Shown one piece after another: positions 15,525-25,267 of a stretch of 54,253 nt of DNA. Each line of letters opens with the position of its first letter. Positions within the stretch are counted from its first letter, which is position 1. The position numbers were made by a program, and so were the translations under genes. The stretch comes from an uncultured Bifidobacteriaceae bacterium (lineage in GTDB: Bacteria > Bacteroidota > Bacteroidia > Cytophagales > UBA9547). The notes under the pieces were generated by a model that was not told the DNA's origin, did no database searches, and saw nothing but the letters and a program-made list of their open reading frames with translations. The stretch lies in contig CAZMFZ010000005.1 of NCBI GenBank assembly GCA_964565665.1, forward strand, positions 1 to 54,253, written 5' to 3'.

Positions 15525-16556
15525 TCAGATGGGTGTATCAACTATTACAACTTCCCCTAAAGCTGTACCTACAGCAAAATTTTGATCGTTTGGACACCAC
15601 GAAAGCGCAGTAATATTACCTTGGAGTGTTCCTCCTGTCAATAATGAAGTAGATAATTTCGGGTACCAACATAAAAAAACACCTTTAGTATCTCCTGAGA
15701 CCATGATATTACTATTATGTGCAAAGTTCAATGAGGTTATTCTATGCTTGTGGCCTTGAAGCACAATAGGTTTTTGTCCTACTGGGGCTTTGCCACTAAT
15801 TTCCCATATTACTATTTCATTTCCGCAGTTAGAGGCCAGCATACTGGAATCGGCAGCCCACGAAAGTTCTTTCACTTTTCCTGCATAGCCCGACATTTCA
15901 CAATCATTGTCTGGTTCAAAAGGCAATGGCCAGAAATGAATTCTTGAATCTTGTGTTCCAGCACATATAAATTTGCCATCAGGACTCCACGAGAGAGAAA
16001 TAAGTGAATTTCGCCATGGTAAAATCTCGCTGGGTATTTCATTGTTTACATCAAAAATTTTTAAGTTGCCATAACTGCCCAAAGCAAATTCGGAACTGTC
16101 TTTTTTCCAAGTAATGGCAGATACGGTACTTTCAGGATTTATAAAGTGATAAACCAATTCCCCATTTCGAGCATATAGTTTAATATTCTTTCCTGACCCC
16201 ATTACAAAATACGCTCCATTAGGTGACCATTTCAGGTGCTCAACCCATTGCCAGCCTCCTTCAAATTGCTTCAGCAATTTACCTGTAGAAGTTTCCCAAA
16301 GTTTCACCAACCCATCTTGGCCAGCAGTTAAAAAAAGCAGTTCTTTTGGGGAATGCGTTATTGAAATAATTCCTACTTCATGGGCAGCTATTGAAAATAT
16401 GACTTTTTGCTTATTTGCATTTACTACTGCTAATTTGCCAGAGGAAAGTGCAATGCACAGATATGTGTTATCGAAACTCCAGGAGAGACCGCTAATATAA
16501 TCTTCAAATTTTGTAGTCCATGCTTCTAATCCTCGTTCTTGCTGAATAATACTCAT
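15525..16556 (-). CDS. Cytoplasmic WD40-repeat beta-propeller protein
   Basis: 343 aa with no signal peptide and about seven WD-like blades (e.g. LTAGQDGLVKLWE, AGTQDSRIHFW, VSGDTKGVFLCW). Start is 3 nt after the stop of the upstream COG0523 gene. Confidence 0.85.
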   Translation of the reverse strand: MSIIQQERGLEAWTTKFEDYISGLSWSFDNTYLCIALSSGKLAVVNANKQKVIFSIAAHEVGIISITHSPKELLFLTAGQDGLVKLWETSTGKLLKQFEGGWQWVEHLKWSPNGAYFVMGSGKNIKLYARNGELVYHFINPESTVSAITWKKDSSEFALGSYGNLKIFDVNNEIPSEILPWRNSLISLSWSPDGKFICAGTQDSRIHFWPLPFEPDNDCEMSGYAGKVKELSWAADSSMLASNCGNEIVIWEISGKAPVGQKPIVLQGHKHRITSLNFAHNSNIMVSGDTKGVFLCWYPKLSTSLLTGGTLQGNITALSWCPNDQNFAVGTALGEVVIVDTPI

Positions 16557-16559
16557 AAC

Positions 16560-17921
16560 TTATTTGCTCAATGCTTTTTCTTTCTTGGCGATGCAATCGT
16601 TGAATCCCTTTGTAAGTGCTTCTCTGTCTAGGTTTTTACCTATAAATACCACTTGGCTTTTCCTTTTTTCATCTGGCTTCCATGGTCTGTCAGGTTTGCC
16701 ATCGAATAGCATGTGCACACCTTGAAATACAAATCGGTCTTCATCGCCTTGCATATTAAAAATCCCTTTCATACGGTAAATATCTGTGCCTTTGAACTGT
16801 AACAAACCGCCTAGCCACATATTTACTGCTCCTATTTCTAGGCTTTTATCGGTTTCTAAGCCTACTGAGGTTACTTCGCTATTGTGTTCATGGCTGTGTT
16901 CAAACTCATAAGACTGTAAAAGTTCAGGTTCTTTACCATTTTGTAGCCATTTCATAGAAAACTCATCGGGATGGTGCTGTGTAAAAATTCCATATATCCC
17001 TTCTTTATTAAACTTGGCTCTGAAATTATTTTCCTCACTTTCAAGCACAAGTGTACTTACTTGGCTGTTGGTTTTAAGGAATTTCCCTTGATGAACTTTC
17101 TCTGTTTTTTCTGAAAACAATCGAACGGCTGATTTTTTAACATCTGCAAAATCATTGAGGTTGTCAACTTTCAAAATCAGAATATCCATGCTTGGATCGG
17201 GACCTTCTTGCAATGTCAGTTGGTATTCCATTTCATTAAACTGATAAAAACCAGCAAATTCAAAAGGCATTTCTTCAGTCATAAATTCAGGATTCAGTTC
17301 TGCTTTAGCTTCTAAATCAAACGCATGTACATCTAAAATTTTATCCATGTCAATAGCTGCATCTTGTGTGCGAAAAATCTTAGCTTGTGAGTTCATGGCT
17401 TTGATTTTCTTTTCCAGTTTGATAAGATCAGCATCGTTAACTAAATCGGTTTTATTCAGCAAAATGACATCGGCAAAGGCTATTTGTTCCTGGCATTCGG
17501 AACTGTCGTCAATATGCTGCCACACGTGCATGGCATCTACAATTGTAATGATTGCATCGAGAGAAAATTCTTCTTTCATTTCATCATCTACCCAAAATGT
17601 TTGGGCTACGGGAGCTGGATTAGCCAAGCCAGTAGTTTCTACAATGATATGGTCGAGCCTGTCTTTTCTACGCATGAGTTGCCCCAAAATACGAATAAGG
17701 TCGCCCCGAACGGTGCAGCAAATACAACCATTGTTCATTTCAAATATTTCTTCATCGGCACCAATTACCAGTTCATTGTCTATACCTATTTCGCCAAACT
17801 CGTTTTCAATTACGGCAATTTTTTTGCCGTGATTTTCGGATAAAATGCGGTTTAATAAGGTGGTTTTACCTGAGCCTAGAAAACCTGTGAGTACGGTAAC
17901 CGGTATTTTTTTATTTTCCAT
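16560..17921 (-). CDS. COG0523 (CobW/G3E) metallochaperone GTPase with an inserted domain of about 140 aa
   Basis: P-loop [22 protein letters not shown] motif, NKTDL, short His cluster (EFEHSHEHN) and CobW_C end (IYRMKGIF...VVFIGKNLD). About residues 205-345 have no counterpart in usual 320-350-aa members. Confidence 0.88.
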
Positions 17922-18093: not shown

Positions 18094-18366
18094 TTATTTT
18101 TCAATAATGGTTTCGATATTACTTTGCTCAATGTCTCTCAGCTTTACAAAAACCAATGGTTTTTGTATTTTTATTTTATTAATAGCATAACCATTTATCA
18201 TAAGTATTACCGTTTCCACACAAGGGCATCTTTCATCTGCACATTGAACTTCTTTTATAACGATGGCACTCCCTTCGCCTAAATCAAATATGTCTTTTAC
18301 CCATGCTATAATTGCTTTGAGATTTTCAGTATTGGATTTATCGGCAGGATTTATATATGAACTCAT
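18094..18366 (-). CDS. Small hypothetical protein with a CxxxxCxC motif
   Basis: 90-aa ORF (..VQCADERCPCVETVILM..) with no overlapping larger ORF. Bracketed by repeat copies e and f. No family recognised. Confidence 0.45.
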   Translation of the reverse strand: MSSYINPADKSNTENLKAIIAWVKDIFDLGEGSAIVIKEVQCADERCPCVETVILMINGYAINKIKIQKPLVFVKLRDIEQSNIETIIEK

Positions 18367-18502: not shown

Positions 18503-18841
18503 TTATTGTTTTTCTCCATTTTCTAGTTCAAAATATCCAGTATGAAGGTGCTTAACAGTTAATATTTCGTCACGTATCAATACCGTATTTACAAATTCTG
18601 CTGCGTTTTCTGCCTTCATTTCTTTATACCAAACGTAACCAGGGCTTACGATTACCACAGGGCTATCGTAGCACCTTCCATTACACAAAGTTTTTGTGCT
18701 ATGAACAGATTCATCCAATCCTGCCTCTTTTATGGCTTTTCTGATTGCCTTTGTACTTTCAGCAGCACCCGCAGCTTGGCATGCATCGCCATTGCAAAAG
18801 AAAATGTGGTTACGTACCTTAGTCAAATCTCTGATTACCAT
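18503..18841 (-). CDS. Thioredoxin-like [2Fe-2S] ferredoxin domain protein
   Basis: 112 aa with a Cys pattern FFCNGDAC ... LCNGRCYDSP (Cx4C ... Cx3C) in a Trx-like Fd context. Its ATG overlaps the ZIP stop (TAATG). Confidence 0.7.
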   Translation of the reverse strand: MVIRDLTKVRNHIFFCNGDACQAAGAAESTKAIRKAIKEAGLDESVHSTKTLCNGRCYDSPVVIVSPGYVWYKEMKAENAAEFVNTVLIRDEILTVKHLHTGYFELENGEKQ

Positions 18842-19620
18842 TATTTTATAGCATTTTCAAGTACATTAATAAACAACATAGAGGCCACGCCAAAGCAAAT
18901 GGCCACACCTTGAACGATGGGCTTTGAAAATACAGATGTAGTATGCAGTACCGGAATGAGATCGGATGAAGCTATGTAAATAAAGCCTCCAGCTGCTATG
19001 GGCAAAAGATAGGCCACTGGCACATCCATTACACTCCCAAGCAAAAGCACGCAAATAGCACCCAAGGGGCAGGTAAGCGAACAAATAAAATTGTACCAAA
19101 CGGCTTTTTTGGGTGTATATCCGCCATGAATTAAAGTGCCAATATCGCCCAATTCTTGCGGGATTTCATGAATAACAATCGCTATAAATGTGGTGATGCC
19201 CAATTTAATATCTACCATAAAACTACCTGCTATCAAAGTACCATCTACAAAATTGTGTATAGCATCGCCTATCAGGTTCATTTTTGCCATGGGTGTAGGT
19301 TGGTCTTTAGTGTTTGCATTAGTAATAGGGTATATTTCATGACTATGCCGCCAACGCACTACTTTTTCAAGAAAAAAGAAAAGAATGATTCCTCCAATGG
19401 TAAAAAGCAACACCTGTTGCAAATCGCCTATTCTGAAATAAGCATCAGGAATTAGGTGCAAGAAGGCATCTCCAAGCAACACGCCCACCGCAAGACTCAC
19501 TAGAAATTGGATGGAATTTTTTAGTTTTTCCTGTTTTACAAATAATGCGAATGCACCTACAAGGGCAATTACACAAACAAGTAAACTAGCAAAAATGCTA
19601 TATAGCCAAATTGCTATCAT
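18841..19620 (-). CDS. ZIP family divalent-metal permease (ZupT-like)
   Basis: HNFVDGTLIAGSF and HEIPQELGDIGTLI signature helices. Start moved to ATG 19620 (MIAIWLYS...), which sits 1 nt after the upstream stop. Confidence 0.88.
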   Translation of the reverse strand: MIAIWLYSIFASLLVCVIALVGAFALFVKQEKLKNSIQFLVSLAVGVLLGDAFLHLIPDAYFRIGDLQQVLLFTIGGIILFFFLEKVVRWRHSHEIYPITNANTKDQPTPMAKMNLIGDAIHNFVDGTLIAGSFMVDIKLGITTFIAIVIHEIPQELGDIGTLIHGGYTPKKAVWYNFICSLTCPLGAICVLLLGSVMDVPVAYLLPIAAGGFIYIASSDLIPVLHTTSVFSKPIVQGVAICFGVASMLFINVLENAIK

Positions 19621-19621
19621 A

Positions 19622-19939
19622 TTAATTGTACTTAAAATCTTCGTGCAGTTCGAGTAATAATTTGTAATAATCTGTATCAGAAAGTATAAAATCACTTGCA
19701 TGACATTGTACTAATCCTTTTTCCAATAATTCTTTATTAAGGTTTTTTCCTATGAATACCAATTTGGTTTGTCTTTCGTCAGTCTCCCAACTTCCAAAGG
19801 ATTCTACCACGTATTGGTTGTGAACCGATTGAATAATAAATTTTTCGTTTTCATCTGCAACGAATAATATTCCTTTTATACGGTAAATATTGCCTCGACT
19901 TTCAGTTAAAATCACTCGAATGAACCTATCGAATCTCAA
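19622..19939 (-). CDS. Stand-alone CobW C-terminal domain protein (possible remnant of a third COG0523 paralogue)
   Basis: 105 aa, TTG start. RGNIYRIKGILFVADENEKFIIQSVHNQY..ERQTKLVFIGKNLNKELLEKGL aligns by eye with the C-terminus of the 453-aa COG0523. No GTPase domain, and only 121 nt separate it from the upstream gene. Confidence 0.6.
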   Translation of the reverse strand: MRFDRFIRVILTESRGNIYRIKGILFVADENEKFIIQSVHNQYVVESFGSWETDERQTKLVFIGKNLNKELLEKGLVQCHASDFILSDTDYYKLLLELHEDFKYN

Positions 19940-20060: not shown

Positions 20061-21269
20061 TTACAACACATTGTCCCATTGACTTTCACCTTTTACGTGC
20101 TTGAAGTTTTTAAATTCTTCATCCGTGCACAAGCATTCTTCCAGCTCTTCTGTCACTCGCTGTATATCAATATCTTGTCCTATAAATACAATTTCGTTCA
20201 TGCGATCGCCATAGGTTTTGTCCCATTTAGATTCAATAGTCTTTTTATTTTCTACAAAATCAACAAAAGTAATCCTTTCCGCAAAAGGCATGCTTGCCCA
20301 CCAAACGCCTGCACTTTCAGCTCTTATACTCCCGCCCGCCTGGCTCCAGTTAATAGCAGTAGTAGCATGTGACGCAACCCACATCAAACCTTTACTTCTG
20401 ATAATGCCTGCTGGAAAATTTTCGTTGAAATATTGCCAAAGCCTTTCTGGATGAAAAGGGCGTTTGTTCCTAAATACAAACGATTTTATGCCATATTCTT
20501 CTGTCTCTGGGGTGTGTTCTCTGTTTAATTCTTCTTTCCAAGCCTCAGTTTCTGAGGCTTCATCAAAGTCAAACATGCCTGTGTTCAATATTTGTAGCAA
20601 AGGAATTTTGCTAAAAGAGGTGTCAATTACTTTAGCTTTCGGGTTGAGCTTTTTTATCACTGCTTTCAACTCTCCTGCTTGACTGGGAGAAACCAAATCT
20701 GTCTTATTTACCAATATCACATTGGCAAATTCTATTTGATCCAGCAGCAAATTCACAATCGTCCGCTTATCGTTAGGATCATCGTCATTCAGTTTACGTG
20801 TCCACACGGTATCGATGCTACCAAAATCTTTGGCGAAATTAAAAGCATCTACCACCGTAACCATGGTGTCGAGTTGGGCATATTTAGATAAATCTACTTT
20901 GCCATCTTCGGACACAAAACTAAAAGTTTGGGCTATCGGAATAGGTTCTGAAATACCTGTGCTTTCTATTAATAGATAATCGAAACGGTTTTCTAAAGCC
21001 AGTTTTTCGACTTCGATCATTAAATCTTCTCTCAATGTGCAGCATATACAACCGTTGGACATTTCAACAAGTTTTTCTTCCGTTCTTGAAAGTGTGTTTT
21101 CTTTCGATACCAAAGCGGCATCTACATTTATTTCGCTCATGTCATTCACAATCACGGCTACTTTTAAGCCTTCTTTATTATGTAAAATGTGGTTGAGCAA
21201 AGTAGTTTTACCTGCGCCTAGGAATCCACTGAGTACGGTGACGGGAAGTTTTTGAAAAGGTGTTTTCAT
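20061..21269 (-). CDS. COG0523 GTPase, ZigA/ZagA(YciC)-like zinc metallochaperone subfamily
   Basis: 402 aa. [27 protein letters not shown] and the subfamily-typical [26 protein letters not shown] segment as in B. subtilis YciC. Confidence 0.88.
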
Positions 21270-21274
21270 GGTAT

Positions 21275-21754
21275 TTATTTATGTTCTTTTAGCATCTTTA
21301 CATCGTCTGCCTTGATCTTATCATGGTCGGCCGTCATTTGGGTATGCTGTTTTTTCATGTTTTCGTGGTCTGCTACCATTTTATCATGTTCCTCTTGTAC
21401 CGTCAAATCGTTTAAAGTTTTCTCGGTATGTTGCTTCTCTATATCCGCATGTGTTTGAGTTAATAATTTATGCTCTTCCGCCATTTGTGCGTGTTTGTCC
21501 ATCATTGCCACATGTTGCATTTCCATGGTTGTATGCGAGCTATCCTGAGTAGAACCTACTATTTGCTTGTGTTGCATTACCCATTCAAGATGTTCGTTTT
21601 CCAATTGGGTATGTTCCGCTTCAAGTGTGGAATCTTCCATTTCAAAATCTTTGTGCGATTGCGCTAATTTTTGGTGAAGATTATTCTTAATACAACCTGT
21701 TAACACAATGGCAATCGCAAAAGAAATTGCAAAAGCACTTTTATAAAAGTTCAT
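21275..21754 (-). CDS. His/Met-rich lipoprotein with an HxxMxxxH heptad pattern
   Basis: Signal peptide plus lipobox (VLTGC). The mature part is helical and low in complexity, e.g. [27 protein letters not shown], with His and Met alternating at i/i+3/i+7. Confidence 0.75.
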
Positions 21755-21839: not shown

Positions 21840-22418
21840 TTAATCCACAACAGTTACATCAAACTCAAGATCGAAATCGGCTTCACCTTCTTCTATATTG
21901 TTTGTTTTAGTGATACCGTCAAAATGCCTGAGGGTGACACGAAGTTTACCCATTCCAGTTACGCTACCCACTGTGGCGGTGTATGTCAAGCCTATGGGTT
22001 GGTTATTCTTATCTAGGTCTGTAATTGCCAATGCCATAGTAGTGCCTGAAGTTGTCGAAGGACTGTACACATAATGAAATCTATGCGCATCGGCTTCTTC
22101 TGCTATTTCCTCATTTACAAACTTAATTGGGGTTTTGGTATCATCGAAAATACTCACGGTGCCAATGTAGGCCAGTCCCTTTTTCAACGTTAGTCCTGTA
22201 ATAGTTGAGGGTTTTGGACCACTGTCATCCGGATCTGTAAATGTTGCAGTTCGAACATCAGTTCCAGAGGTGAAAGTCAGCATAATTCGGGTAATGGCCT
22301 CCTCATCTCCGGCTCCTGTGCCTTGGTCTTTCGGTTTTACTTCATCTTTAGTACATGAACTAAGTACAAGCGTAGCCATGATGGCTGCTGTTGAAATGGT
22401 GTAAATTAACTTTTTCAT
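21840..22418 (-). CDS. Lipoprotein of unknown function encoded directly after the TonB-dependent receptor
   Basis: 192 aa, lipobox LSSCTK, beta-rich Thr/Gly-rich mature part. 30 nt downstream of the TBDR stop. Confidence 0.7.
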   Translation of the reverse strand: MKKLIYTISTAAIMATLVLSSCTKDEVKPKDQGTGAGDEEAITRIMLTFTSGTDVRTATFTDPDDSGPKPSTITGLTLKKGLAYIGTVSIFDDTKTPIKFVNEEIAEEADAHRFHYVYSPSTTSGTTMALAITDLDKNNQPIGLTYTATVGSVTGMGKLRVTLRHFDGITKTNNIEEGEADFDLEFDVTVVD

Positions 22419-22448: not shown

Positions 22449-24800
22449 TTAAACATTGTATTTATAAATAGATAATGGAATTTTGACCCTTAAAATGAAA
22501 TTTCGCCCGGGTTCGTCTGCGAAATAGCGATAGCGGTTCATGTACTCCCTGTAAGAGGTATTGAATAAATTGTTTACTTGAAAATTGATATTGATAAGTT
22601 GCTTTCCTATTGCTACATCAGCGCCTAACTCCAATGCAGCCAAAGCATAGCCCTGTGGAGGTGGAGCAAAATCACTATTTGGGTTTACCCTAGTTTGTGT
22701 GGCAGTAAAGGAGCCTGTCACTTGGCCATACAAGGCATTTTTTTTCAAAAATTGAGAAAATTCTGGTTGCCAACGTGCCGATACTTCACCACGGTATGGC
22801 GGTATATAAACCATGTAATCACTAAAGGTTTCATTGTAGGCATTGACAGCCGACCCTTTGGCTACCAAATTCACTTGCTTGGTAAGTGCAAAAATTGCAT
22901 TCAAATCTATCCCGTAAAACGAGGCATTGGTCTGTGTGTATGCAAACTCCAACAGTTGCCCGACTCTCGTTTCCCTGTATAATAACGTGGGTTGCAGATA
23001 TATATAATTGTTGATATAGGCATAATGAACAGTGGCCTCAAAAGACAGCCTAGAACTTTGGTAGTTAGCACTACTAACAAATTTATAACCCTGTTCAGCC
23101 TTTAAATTGGCATTGCCTACTTCCACAAATACACTTCCGTGCACCTGCCCGTTTACAAACATCTCGTTGGGCGTAGGCGGACGAAATGTGGCACCTACAT
23201 TGCTTTTCAAAGTGAAGTGTGGCGACAAGCGAAAACTAGCGCCCATATTGCCCGAAAAATTTTGATACCTGTAGCTGCTGTCGCTGAATTGCGACCCTCT
23301 TCTGAACAAATAGTTGTAATTCTTGACATCATACCGCATACCAGCTTCAAGTTCTAGGCGGTTTAGCTTCCACTTTTCGATGATAAAAGCCCCATACGAA
23401 TTACTAAAATAAGTTGGAATAAGAAACCGTGTACCATCCCACTCATTGACCTGTTGCTGGTAAACTACACCAATTAAACCCTGAAAATGTTGTCCTTGAA
23501 AATGGTCAAATACCAATTCTGCCGATTGGGTAGCCAGTTTAAAATCATACTGCGGACTTGATTTTAAAGAATCCTTTAAAGGAGGATGCCTGTCGTACTC
23601 TTGCCTATGGTTCCATTGGCTGCCTAATGTCAATGATAATTTACCAATGGTCGAAATATTGAATTGCGTTTTAAGGCTGAACAAATGGTGCGTTACATTT
23701 TGGTATCCTCTGTTAATCGCGTAGGTAAACGGCTCTGCTAATCTTGGTTGTGCTCGTTGAATGGCCAATGCCAGGTCTTTTGTGTTGTTGGGCTGAGCAT
23801 CTGGCAATATGCCCAATGTGGTATTAAAACGGCTAAAGTAGGCTTCTACACTGAATTTTTTCTTTAAATATCCCAAAGAAGCCGAATAATTACCTTCTCT
23901 ATAACTAGTATTAGACAATATATATTTGGGAGCTTCGGCACTCCCAGCGTGTTTGTAACTGCCCTGTACCCTCCATTTCAAATCAGGCAACCTGGCAATA
24001 TTGCCTTCTAACATCAGCGAACCAACCCCCATTCTGTTGTTGGAAAAACCTCCCAAATTGAGTTCACCACCCAATCCGCTCATATTCTTGAGTGATTTGG
24101 GCTCCACAATTATCACACCAGCAATGGCATCCGAACCATACCGAAGTCCTGAAGCTCCTTTCACAACTGTCAATTTATTGGTAATAAATGGGTCGATTTC
24201 CGGTGCGTGTTCAGCTCCCCATTGCTGGGTTTCTAGCCGCAATCCGCCATTCATAATCAGTAACCTGTTGCTATGCATACCGTGCAACACAGGTTTTGCT
24301 ATGCTAGGTCCGGTCTGGAAAGTGAACATGCCAGGAATTTCCCTTAGCGATTCTGCCAAATTAAGCCCACGAGTTCTATCCAAGGCTTTGGCCTCGAGCG
24401 TATTAATTGGCTGAGATACTAAATATATTTCCTGCCTTTCTCCCATTATCACTACAGATTCGAGCACGTTAGTGTCAGCTTGAAGCACAATATCCATGTG
24501 CGTAAATTTATTAATCACAATGGTTTGCTCCAATGGTTTATATCCTAAGTAACTTACTTTTACTAAAAACTTACCTGCACAAAGTGATGCCATTCTATAC
24601 TCCCCTTTTTCGTTGGTTTCCGTTCCTTTGTTTAGCTCTTGAATATAGATAATTGCGCCAAGCAAAGGCTTTTGCGAGATCCCTTCGTATACATGACCTT
24701 TAAAGGTATAGGTACATATTTTTGAGGTGTCAGTTTGGGCGTGCGTAATTGTTAGGCAGAAAACCATCATTAACAAGGTAATCTTTGAGATTAAAGTCAC
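22449..24800 (-). CDS. TonB-dependent receptor with an N-terminal CarboxypepD_reg domain
   Basis: 783 aa with a signal peptide, a CarboxypepD_reg-like segment (GHVYEG...KGEYRM..L..GKFLVKVSYLGY), a plug, and a long beta-barrel with alternating aromatic pattern. No SusD partner. Confidence 0.9.
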   Translation of the reverse strand: MTLISKITLLMMVFCLTITHAQTDTSKICTYTFKGHVYEGISQKPLLGAIIYIQELNKGTETNEKGEYRMASLCAGKFLVKVSYLGYKPLEQTIVINKFTHMDIVLQADTNVLESVVIMGERQEIYLVSQPINTLEAKALDRTRGLNLAESLREIPGMFTFQTGPSIAKPVLHGMHSNRLLIMNGGLRLETQQWGAEHAPEIDPFITNKLTVVKGASGLRYGSDAIAGVIIVEPKSLKNMSGLGGELNLGGFSNNRMGVGSLMLEGNIARLPDLKWRVQGSYKHAGSAEAPKYILSNTSYREGNYSASLGYLKKKFSVEAYFSRFNTTLGILPDAQPNNTKDLALAIQRAQPRLAEPFTYAINRGYQNVTHHLFSLKTQFNISTIGKLSLTLGSQWNHRQEYDRHPPLKDSLKSSPQYDFKLATQSAELVFDHFQGQHFQGLIGVVYQQQVNEWDGTRFLIPTYFSNSYGAFIIEKWKLNRLELEAGMRYDVKNYNYLFRRGSQFSDSSYRYQNFSGNMGASFRLSPHFTLKSNVGATFRPPTPNEMFVNGQVHGSVFVEVGNANLKAEQGYKFVSSANYQSSRLSFEATVHYAYINNYIYLQPTLLYRETRVGQLLEFAYTQTNASFYGIDLNAIFALTKQVNLVAKGSAVNAYNETFSDYMVYIPPYRGEVSARWQPEFSQFLKKNALYGQVTGSFTATQTRVNPNSDFAPPPQGYALAALELGADVAIGKQLININFQVNNLFNTSYREYMNRYRYFADEPGRNFILRVKIPLSIYKYNV

Positions 24801-24872: not shown

Positions 24873-25199
24873 TTATAAAAATGGGGGGGCTCGCCCTTGA
24901 GAAAAAATGGTTACAAATTTTAAATCGGCAAATACTACATGAAAAAAGCTTAATTCCAACCGCAGTAAAAGGTTTGATGAGGTTATGCATTCATGAAATA
25001 ATTCATTAAATATATGCACCGCACAGATAGCACACTTGTCTTTGCTTACACCGAATACGACTTTACCTTGCGCTTTGTGTTGATGAAGTTCGTTATCTTC
25101 AGCCTCGTGTGTATGCAAAAGATTAGCCGCCACTTGCGTAAAAAATAGGTTTGTGAGCAACACACATGAAACAGCAATAAGTAAAACTCTATTTTTCAA
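24873..25199 (-). CDS. Small secreted His/Cys protein, first gene of the metal cluster
   Basis: 108 aa, TTG start and signal peptide, then LLHTHEAEDNELHQH...KCAICAVH...HEC...APP. Loosely reminiscent of small Cys proteins found ahead of metal TBDRs (DUF2946 / HYC_CC_PP types), but not a confident match. Confidence 0.5.
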   Translation of the reverse strand: MKNRVLLIAVSCVLLTNLFFTQVAANLLHTHEAEDNELHQHKAQGKVVFGVSKDKCAICAVHIFNELFHECITSSNLLLRLELSFFHVVFADLKFVTIFSQGRAPPFL

Positions 25200-25225
25200 T
25201 CCTATCTATGAAGCATTCTAAGGTA

Positions 25226-25267
25226 CAAATATAAAGAAAAGAATAGTATTTGCAACAAAGTTGCAAC
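25226..25267 (-). promoter_or_regulatory. Candidate Bacteroidota sigmaA promoter (TTG-N19-TATATTTG) with a doubled GTTGCAAC palindrome over the -33 element
   Basis: Minus strand reads GTTGCAACtttGTTGCAAAtactattcttttcttTATATTTG. The -7 box (25233-25226) ends about 26 nt before the TTG start at 25199. The two 8-mers are centred 11 bp apart. Confidence 0.45.

Follow-up and report, generated by a model that had tools for sequence, protein, structure and literature searches.

A beta-sandwich domain inserted into a WD40-coupled COG0523 GTPase recurs in zinc and cobalt transport proteins

COG0523 GTPases are metallochaperones found in all kingdoms, with clients and mechanisms known in few cases, examples being the ZNG1-METAP1, ZagA-FolE and MigC-MurD pairings. 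A stretch of 54,253 nucleotides (nt) from an uncultured bacterium placed in the Bacteroidota (CAZMFZ010000005.1, assembly GCA_964565665.1; this whole stretch is hereafter 'the window') encodes on its minus strand a protein of this type with two attributes that call for an explanation. Between its GTPase and C-terminal domains lies an inserted segment of 126 amino acids (aa), and a gene for a WD40-repeat propeller begins immediately beyond its stop codon. The locus raises the question of what the inserted segment is, whether the partnership with the propeller depends upon it, and what the two might contribute to metal handling. The features of the gene pair are as follows.

16560-17921, minus strand: COG0523 (G3E) GTPase gene, 453 aa, with inserted domain (open reading frame, ORF; Pfam; YjiA alignment)
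17373-17903, minus strand: G-domain, residues 7-183 (Pfam PF02492)
17862-17885, minus strand: Walker A, GFLGSGKT, residues 13-20 (read from the sequence)
17715-17729, minus strand: metal-site motif GCICC, residues 65-69 (read from the sequence)
17628-17639, minus strand: ETTG, residues 95-98 (read from the sequence)
17445-17456, minus strand: NKTD, residues 156-159 (read from the sequence)
16899-17276, minus strand: inserted beta-sandwich domain, residues 216-341, 126 aa (gap against the insert-less Skermanella orthologue)
16881-16901, minus strand: His motif EHSHEHN, residues 341-347, directly after the insert (sequence and alignments)
16593-16871, minus strand: CobW_C C-terminal domain, residues 351-443 (Pfam PF07683)
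16764-16775, minus strand: RxKG motif, R383-M-K385-G386, within CobW_C (read from the sequence)
16557-16559, minus strand: 3-nt spacer from the COG0523 stop to the WD40 start (AAA TAA gtt ATG AGT)
15525-16556, minus strand: WD40 propeller partner of 343 aa, cytoplasmic, with eight WD-like repeats (ORF; Pfam; repeat hidden Markov model, HMM)

The larger protein is a bona fide COG0523 GTPase with canonical motifs and a CobW_C end, as a preliminary description of the sequence had proposed. Pfam assigns cobW (PF02492, 6e-64) to residues 7-183 and CobW_C (PF07683, 4e-24) to residues 351-443, no model of that database covering residues 184-350, and Escherichia coli YjiA (PDB 1nij, 2e-57) aligns in two blocks, 6-206 and 345-440, that skip approximately 138 residues. 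The attributes expected of COG0523/G3E proteins are all present: a P-loop G-domain, a CxCC motif and a CobW_C domain containing RxKG. The sequence NNGCICC (residues 63-69) conforms to N(G/S)CxCC, the metal-binding motif located between Walker A and Walker B in this family. In an alignment of 42 homologues the four G-domain motifs (Walker A, GCICC, ETTG and NKTD) are invariant, as are R383, K385 and G386 of RxKG. The short His cluster that had been noted after the insertion corresponds to EHSHEHN, which follows it directly, and both H344 and H346 are invariant, insert-less orthologues included. Tested as a whole, the protein scored below the cutoffs of the models for ZigA (NCBIfam NF038288; 193.9 bits against 600), CobW (TIGR02475; 203.8 against 332.1) and YjiA-type proteins (NF008578; 252.8 against 361). 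Homologues of ~445-485 aa, at 56-75% identity, abound in the Bacteroidota, Acidobacteriota, Nitrospirota, Verrucomicrobiota, Poribacteria and Proteobacteria; the presence of hundreds of such ~450 aa proteins across phyla, together with the conservation of the insertion, shows that the gene is not a chance feature.

The limits of the insertion are set by an orthologue from Skermanella, which is 55% identical to the window protein end to end and differs by a single clean gap corresponding to residues 216-341, with the flanking sequences ...F(L/M)T and E-x-x-H-E-H-(D/N) kept on either side. The insert therefore represents a discrete domain insertion inside one orthologous, WD40-coupled lineage. 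It had been placed at approximately residues 205-345, just before the His motif; its existence and its position in the linker stand, whereas its extent is corrected to 216-341. Nor is it peculiar to this gene: a scan of one genome per species for the insert motif [FY]TQHxP[DEN]EF returned 270 species-level matches, such that the insertion marks a widespread clade. Within COG0523 it retains 33-50% identity across about ten phyla and is characterised by the motifs PFE(W/F)aG, GPDP and FTQHxPDEF. Across all the contexts in which the domain is found, E221, H316 and E320 (window numbering) are invariant, and W222, G224, D242, G308, Y310, F313, P318, F321 and H344 are nearly so.

As the G-domain was poorly modelled by AlphaFold2 (AF2) in the full-length protein (predicted local distance difference test, pLDDT, of 30-60, from a shallow alignment), the insert was modelled alone using a mixed alignment. 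The model of the insert (pLDDT 91.3; predicted template modelling score, pTM, 0.84) is a sandwich of approximately nine strands that also includes two helices, one long and one short; taken with the pattern of conservation, it places H316 and E320 a single helical turn from each other on the short one. A Foldseek search with the full-length model gave YjiA as the sole match. HMM and structure searches with the insert alone matched no described family or linker in Pfam, NCBIfam, the PDB or Foldseek. The Pfam search gave nothing at E <= 10, and in ten other host proteins no Pfam model covered the domain; likewise no NCBIfam model covered it in host proteins. The best result of a profile search of the PDB was a chance match (E = 2), and Foldseek comparison of the insert model with the PDB yielded a best E of 0.11 and TM-scores of at most 0.40. 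The GOLD, PA14 and DeCLIC N-terminal domains (TM 0.3-0.4) were considered as relatives and rejected, the resemblance being a generic likeness between beta-sandwiches. A literature text search for insert motif strings (FEWAG and similar) gave irrelevant matches only, and the 126 aa domain is not described in the COG0523 literature consulted, Haas et al. 2009 and PMC13001444 included. The insert is an autonomous, self-contained and apparently unannotated domain without a solved structure.

Rather than a linker, the insertion is an independently folded domain, and it is found in metal transporters too. When 1.84 billion representative proteins were searched with a profile made from the insert alone, 564 matched at E <= 1e-3 and, of these, 268 reached E <= 1e-10; many are fragments of COG0523 proteins, and at least 28 of the top 150 had non-COG0523 architectures. 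The hosts recovered by this search comprise lipoproteins of ~180-200 aa, a Paenibacillus cation diffusion facilitator (CDF) transporter carrying the domain at its C-terminus, ZnuA/AztC-type binding proteins with one or two inserted copies, ZIP transporters with two N-terminal copies, CzcB/CusB-type adaptors and CbtA, each with the domain at the N-terminus, and a tetratricopeptide repeat (TPR) fusion. It is commonest in the ZnuA/AztC-type binding proteins, and nearly all copies outside COG0523 are flanked by His-rich runs. The genomic settings of these copies are similarly concerned with metals: a stand-alone lipoprotein copy immediately precedes cbiM-cbiQ-cbiO in a cobalamin cluster, the copy fused to CzcB belongs to an OEP-CzcB-CzcA efflux operon, and four loci with the insert-bearing COG0523-WD40 pair also encode a ZnuA carrying the same domain. 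A word-index protein search with the domain alignment returned mostly ZnuA, some of these matches being only to the short His-rich or DPHxW flanks left on the alignment rows, and added no further names or architectures. Giant repeat proteins of 1,700-4,200 aa, with 10-22 partial profile matches each, were also encountered (P0148, P0220, P0228, P0230 and P0267). These were not accepted as members, since only part of the profile is matched (~14-66 or 74-145); they may be distant sandwich relatives or unrelated immunoglobulin-like repeats.

The invariant Glu, His and Glu residues, the His-rich flanks and the exclusive association with zinc, cobalt and nickel transport are most economically explained by a divalent-metal site in the domain, which most likely binds its ligand through Glu221, His316 and Glu320 along with nearby histidines. 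The fuller proposal is held tentatively, at slightly less than even odds: that these are members of an undescribed family of Zn/Co/Ni-binding beta-sandwiches with a Glu...His-x3-Glu site, employed on both sides of the membrane, which in the COG0523 linker would couple occupancy of that site to the GTPase switch and to hand-off by way of the propeller.

The second attribute of the locus, the propeller gene, was correctly described as starting 3 nt after the COG0523 stop, the junction reading AAA-TAA-gtt-ATG. To survey this arrangement, the best 80 of the 270 loci were searched by tblastn with the window WD40 protein; three contigs end too early, leaving 77 informative loci, and in 69 of these, from about ten phyla, a WD40 orthologue is encoded directly downstream of the COG0523 gene. 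The distance from the COG0523 stop to the WD40 start is -13 nt in ~22-24 loci and mostly -4, -1, 0 or +3 nt in the remainder. Tight or overlapping coupling is therefore itself conserved, and both the co-occurrence of the two genes and the view of the WD40 protein as a dedicated partner are borne out. For instance, contigs from Bryobacterales, Mucilaginibacter and Manganitrophaceae have a propeller gene of ~345-375 aa next to that for COG0523, and on a Pantoea agglomerans plasmid a 450 aa form of COG0523 overlaps the WD40 gene by 13 nt. A WD40 protein on a Caballeronia plasmid was rejected as an orthologue, being 24% identical and situated in a monooxygenase cluster.

The pairing is nevertheless independent of the insertion, as insert-less orthologues are coupled to WD40 genes in the same manner. 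Plasmid pSM-3 of Skermanella mucosa carries aztA, a permease, a binding protein, the 55% identical COG0523 protein of 319 aa and a WD40 protein, with the last two genes overlapping by 4 nt, and on a Lichenicola plasmid a gene for a 328 aa COG0523 protein is followed by a WD40 gene. Neither is the linkage new to the literature. A prokaryotic COG0523 'subfamily 5' that clusters with genes for WD40 repeats, znuABC and HoxN-type transporters was described by Haas et al. (2009, BMC Genomics 10:470), who also reported Zur-box operons of the form znuCBA-COG0523-5-WD40(-sapB) in Bradyrhizobium, Nitrobacter and Rhodopseudomonas; eukaryotic ZNG1/CBWD belongs to the same branch. This report means that the COG0523-WD40 linkage is strongly supported rather than novel, and no literature after Haas et al. 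(2009) on the propeller partner was found. The window pair thus adds one more member to a COG0523-WD40 module that is known but uncharacterised; what sets it apart as a variant, and holds the real interest, is the inserted domain.

Two variants of the pair were observed in the course of this survey. In six gammaproteobacterial loci (L030, L066 and four others) it lies beside an ABC transporter and the cyanase CynS (Cyanate_lyase, Pfam 5e-37), a neighbour with no obvious link to metal handling. In Paraburkholderia sprentiae (plasmid pl2WSM5005, 5901-7004; locus L085), the insert-bearing COG0523 gene is annotated from an internal Met and is missing the N-terminal 85 residues, including Walker A and CxCC, and an overlapping WD40 gene still follows; given the IS21 transposase that immediately precedes it, this copy has probably been truncated.

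The WD40 protein begins with the hydrophilic sequence MSIIQQERGLEAWTTKFEDY... and, read from its translation, is without a signal peptide, as had been stated, which indicates a cytoplasmic location. Pfam detects PF00400 at 1.3e-30 and dozens of propeller models, and the PDB sequence matches are canonical WD40 chains. Where about seven blades had been counted, a repeat HMM finds eight WD-like units, as it does in 48 of 52 orthologues, such that the propeller probably has eight blades. Beyond the structural WD residues, the orthologues share the conserved surface motifs GQDG79-82 and M221-x-G-Y-x-x-K227. The propeller was also considered as a possible metalloprotein client, and this was rejected, the orthologues having no conserved Cys/His cluster.

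The pair is the last entry of a minus-strand cluster listed as ten entries, the remainder of which, with a palindrome upstream, is given here.

25250-25266, no strand assigned: Zur-like palindrome TTGCAAC-AAA-GTTGCAA, upstream of the cluster (the only perfect copy in the window)
~24880-25210, minus strand: small ORF, ~110 aa, with Cys/His motifs DKCAICAVH and HEC (read from the sequence)
22449-24800, minus strand: TonB-dependent receptor (Pfam/NCBIfam annotation)
21840-22418 and 21275-21754, minus strand: two lipoproteins following the TonB-dependent receptor, the second of them His-rich (ORFs)
20061-21269, minus strand: ZigA-like COG0523 paralogue, 402 aa (NCBIfam ZigA, 551 bits; cutoff 600)
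19622-19939, minus strand: CobW_C-only ORF, 105 aa, RxKG kept as YRIKGIL (Pfam 5.5e-18)
18841-19701, minus strand: ZIP-family metal importer (Pfam Zip, 8e-48)
18503-18841, minus strand: thioredoxin-like [2Fe-2S] ferredoxin-like protein, 112 aa (Pfam PF01257, 7.6e-07)
18094-18366, minus strand: 90 aa protein with a CxxxxCPC motif, directly upstream of COG0523 (ORF)

The two lipoproteins are probably periplasmic metal-binding proteins. One of them, 159 aa long, is very rich in His, Glu and Met and has no Pfam match; homologues of this His-rich lipoprotein lie beside the palindrome, in divergent orientation, in L011, L012 and L015. Where the window has the ZIP gene, related Bacteroidota loci have one for a NicO-type importer. 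The longest ZIP ORF is overlapped by the CobW_C-only ORF, which lies between the ZIP and ZigA-like genes, and for this reason the true ZIP start is probably Met28, near 19620. The CobW_C-only ORF could be a gene remnant; it is of interest because C-terminal domains of COG0523 proteins supplied in trans can activate G-domains (PMC13001444).

Several of these genes are conserved companions of the pair. Counted over all loci, those enriched among the neighbours are an ABC ATPase (14), a second COG0523 protein (13), the ferredoxin-like protein (13), the 90 aa protein (11), NicO (11), ZnuB (7), an HMA lipoprotein (7), HupE/UreJ (4), ZIP (3), Fur (3) and a TonB-dependent receptor (3). The second COG0523 protein is shorter than the insert-bearing one beside it. 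Homologues of the ferredoxin-like protein, upstream of the pair, and of the 90 aa protein, at position -1, are both companions conserved in Bacteroidota; for the 90 aa protein no family scored above its cutoff in Pfam, a match to DUF5402 being sub-threshold. A thioredoxin-like ferredoxin also follows cbiMQO beside the stand-alone domain lipoprotein in the cobalamin cluster (L090).

The palindrome at the head of the cluster likewise recurs. Its core, TGCAAC-N3-GTTGCA, is found in 13 of 86 loci (L006, L008, L011, L012, L014, L015, L017, L022, L025, L028, L034, L069 and L076), against ~0.05 expected, and the consensus, approximately ATGCAAC-N3-GTTGCAT, precedes metal-uptake operons in the Bacteroidota and a few other phyla. 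In the Bacteroidota loci ~35-200 nt separate it from the first gene, downstream, of pair-containing operons, which consist of a NicO-like importer, the ferredoxin-like protein, in some cases the 90 aa protein, the COG0523 protein with the insert and the WD40 protein. It differs little from the beta-proteobacterial Zur boxes (Haas et al. 2009, Additional file 5, e.g. aAAATGCAACATTGTTGCATTat), making it a candidate operator for a Bacteroidota Zur of the Fur family. A scan for sigma-70 promoters and terminators was not used, as it gave no excess over shuffled expectation. The set of neighbours and the palindrome place the module, by prediction, in a low-metal response controlled by a Fur-family regulator. 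For the window, zinc is the best guess as to the metal; clade-wide, it could be cobalt or nickel.

These observations can be assembled into a low-metal-induced chaperone-propeller module, to which a probability of roughly 0.5 is assigned. The island of TonB-dependent receptor, ZigA-like paralogue, ZIP importer, ferredoxin-like protein, small Cys protein and gene pair would be Zur-regulated and induced when metal is scarce. Cargo, most likely zinc in the window and cobalt or nickel elsewhere in the clade, would be bound at GCICC, with GTP hydrolysis driven by the C-terminal RxKG domain; the invariant RxKG of this domain has been reported in a preprint to be an intramolecular arginine-finger GTPase-activating protein (GAP) element, and in ZigA the linker gates zinc-stimulated GTP hydrolysis (PMC13001444). 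The window protein retains RxKG, and its extra domain is situated in the linker position that performs this gating in ZigA. The 126-residue beta-sandwich, inserted into the inter-domain linker right before the HxHxH/D motif, might accordingly provide an extra site for capture, buffering or hand-off, or else a metal-dependent gate on GTPase activity, its second metal site coupling occupancy to the cycle of domain closure. The GTPase would be co-produced with an eight-repeat cytoplasmic propeller functioning as a protein-interaction platform, either an adaptor for clients or localisation or a regulator sensing which nucleotide is bound. The gene anatomy, the conserved pairing, the autonomy and spread of the domain, its conserved residues and the palindrome are observed, whereas metal binding by the domain, the identity of the metal, and the contact and role of the propeller are inferred.

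A number of points weigh against this reading. The predicted site formed by E221, H316 and E320 is derived from conservation, the proximity of the three residues in space being an assumption, and the window protein has PFEF in place of the PFEW of nearly all other copies, with Phe for the near-invariant W222. Eight of the 77 informative loci have no WD40 gene, physical contact between the GTPase and the propeller is a presumption, and the orthologous propellers, having no conserved Cys/His cluster, give no direct hint of metal chemistry. The label Zur was given by likeness to proteobacterial boxes rather than from a study of a Bacteroidota Zur, and in the window the palindrome is ~7.3 kb upstream of the pair, which leaves room for internal promoters. 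Finally, the metal is ambiguous, given that the neighbours represent both zinc systems (ZnuABC, ZIP) and those for nickel and cobalt (NicO, HupE/UreJ, CbiMNQO, CbtA).

This last point underlies an unlikely, albeit serious, alternative: that the module handles cobalt or nickel and not zinc, for instance supplying cobalt for B12 or for Co/Ni enzymes in the manner of CobW. NicO neighbours the pair in 11 loci and HupE/UreJ in four, CbiMNQO with Fur is found near it in Bryobacterales, the stand-alone copy of the domain adjoins cbiMQO in a B12 cluster, another copy is fused to CbtA, and HoxN-type transporters are among the neighbours of subgroup 5 (Haas et al. 2009). In the window, however, the genes around the pair encode a ZIP importer, a ZigA-like paralogue and a TonB-dependent receptor, and the palindrome resembles Zur boxes; elsewhere, other members occur in znuCBA/aztA operons, and it is mostly inside ZnuA/AztC-type binding proteins that the domain is found.

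A different role for the propeller, also unlikely if still credible, is regulation of the GTPase cycle: rather than a client adaptor, it would act like a guanine nucleotide dissociation inhibitor (GDI), guanine nucleotide exchange factor (GEF) or GAP, loosely as G-beta does with G-alpha. The stoichiometric, overlapping gene arrangement kept across phyla and the conserved surface motifs M221-x-G-Y-x-x-K227 and GQDG79-82 of the WD40 orthologues are consistent with this, as is the governing of COG0523 activity by conformational switching (PMC13001444). Yet COG0523 proteins have an arginine finger of their own in RxKG, which the window protein retains, and belong to the SIMIBI/G3E class, unrelated to G-alpha.

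It is improbable that the inserted domain serves the WD40 partner or a client as a docking surface instead of binding metal. Its position in a flexible linker beside the C-terminal domain, generally seen as the client-interaction domain, would suit such a function, beta-sandwiches often bind proteins, and the nearest, if weak, fold neighbours are binding domains of the GOLD and PA14 types. However, 55% identical orthologues devoid of the insert still have an overlapping WD40 gene, periplasmic or extracellular hosts with no WD40 partner carry the domain in His-rich metal-capture segments, and the residues invariant across contexts, Glu, His and Glu, are typical metal ligands. Most improbable is that the insertion represents neutral, functionless, lineage-specific growth of a linker known to vary in length in COG0523, for even though orthologues without the insert evidently function alongside the same partner, the insert is conserved at 33-50% identity with invariant residues over about ten phyla, folds confidently alone in AF2 and reappears as a separate module in unrelated proteins of metal transport.

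The WD40-coupled branch is the bacterial relative of the ZNG1 group, with an obligate-looking propeller visible in genomes since 2009, and a tractable two-protein system, such as that of the Pantoea plasmid, Pedobacter or Mucilaginibacter, could show how COG0523 GTPases find their clients. What is new here, the gene linkage being already known, is the recognition of the insert as a self-contained, undescribed domain carried by zinc and cobalt transporters too. It is present in Zn/Co importers, exporters and binding proteins as well as in a cytosolic chaperone, and can be put forward as a concrete candidate for a new metal-binding module; naming it would better annotate hundreds of transport proteins, and through it one can test directly if metal is sensed by the COG0523 linker.

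Amongst known systems, one of the closest is the subfamily 5 branch of COG0523 (Haas et al. 2009), which the window pair and its relatives resemble in CxCC and CobW_C, WD40 neighbour and znuABC/transporter context; some members of that branch lie behind Zur boxes, and a Zur-like palindrome heads the window cluster. The window protein differs in the 126 aa inserted domain, which is not described there. Assignment of the window protein to this subfamily is suggested by the shared context and by the 55% identity to a znuCBA-linked orthologue. The best solved homologue, and the best fold match of the full-length model, is E. coli YjiA (1nij, 4ixm), to which G-domain and C-terminal domain can both be aligned, although YjiA is 318 aa long, with a short linker and neither inserted domain nor WD40 partner. 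The eukaryotic ZNG1 recognises its known client METAP1 via an N-terminal motif, with no propeller involved. With the Zur-regulated ZigA, ZagA and YciC (sequence similarity network, SSN, cluster 1) the locus shares a context of zinc limitation, and has a ZigA-like paralogue in the same cluster; by contrast, where the ZigA type has a PETEEY-type linker segment, the linker of the window protein carries a folded domain.

Another propeller in a zinc context is AztD, a periplasmic beta-propeller zinc chaperone, often encoded near CobW-family genes, that binds zinc and passes it to AztC. AztD is secreted, whereas the window protein is signal-less and has canonical WD40 repeats. The latter did not match the AztD type, having no signal peptide and no conserved Cys/His cluster, the second of these arguing against an AztD-like metal carrier; AztD is also absent from the best 60 PDB sequence matches of the WD40 protein. 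The ZnuA/AztC/AdcA cluster A-I binding proteins are related to the window protein through the domain itself, which they carry in one or two copies with His-rich flanks, just as the COG0523 copy lies beside a His motif. In classical ZnuA there is just a His-rich loop that is unstructured, and judging from Pfam profile coordinates the domain appears to replace this loop in its ZnuA hosts. The copies in these binding proteins are periplasmic or extracellular, whereas that in COG0523 is cytoplasmic.

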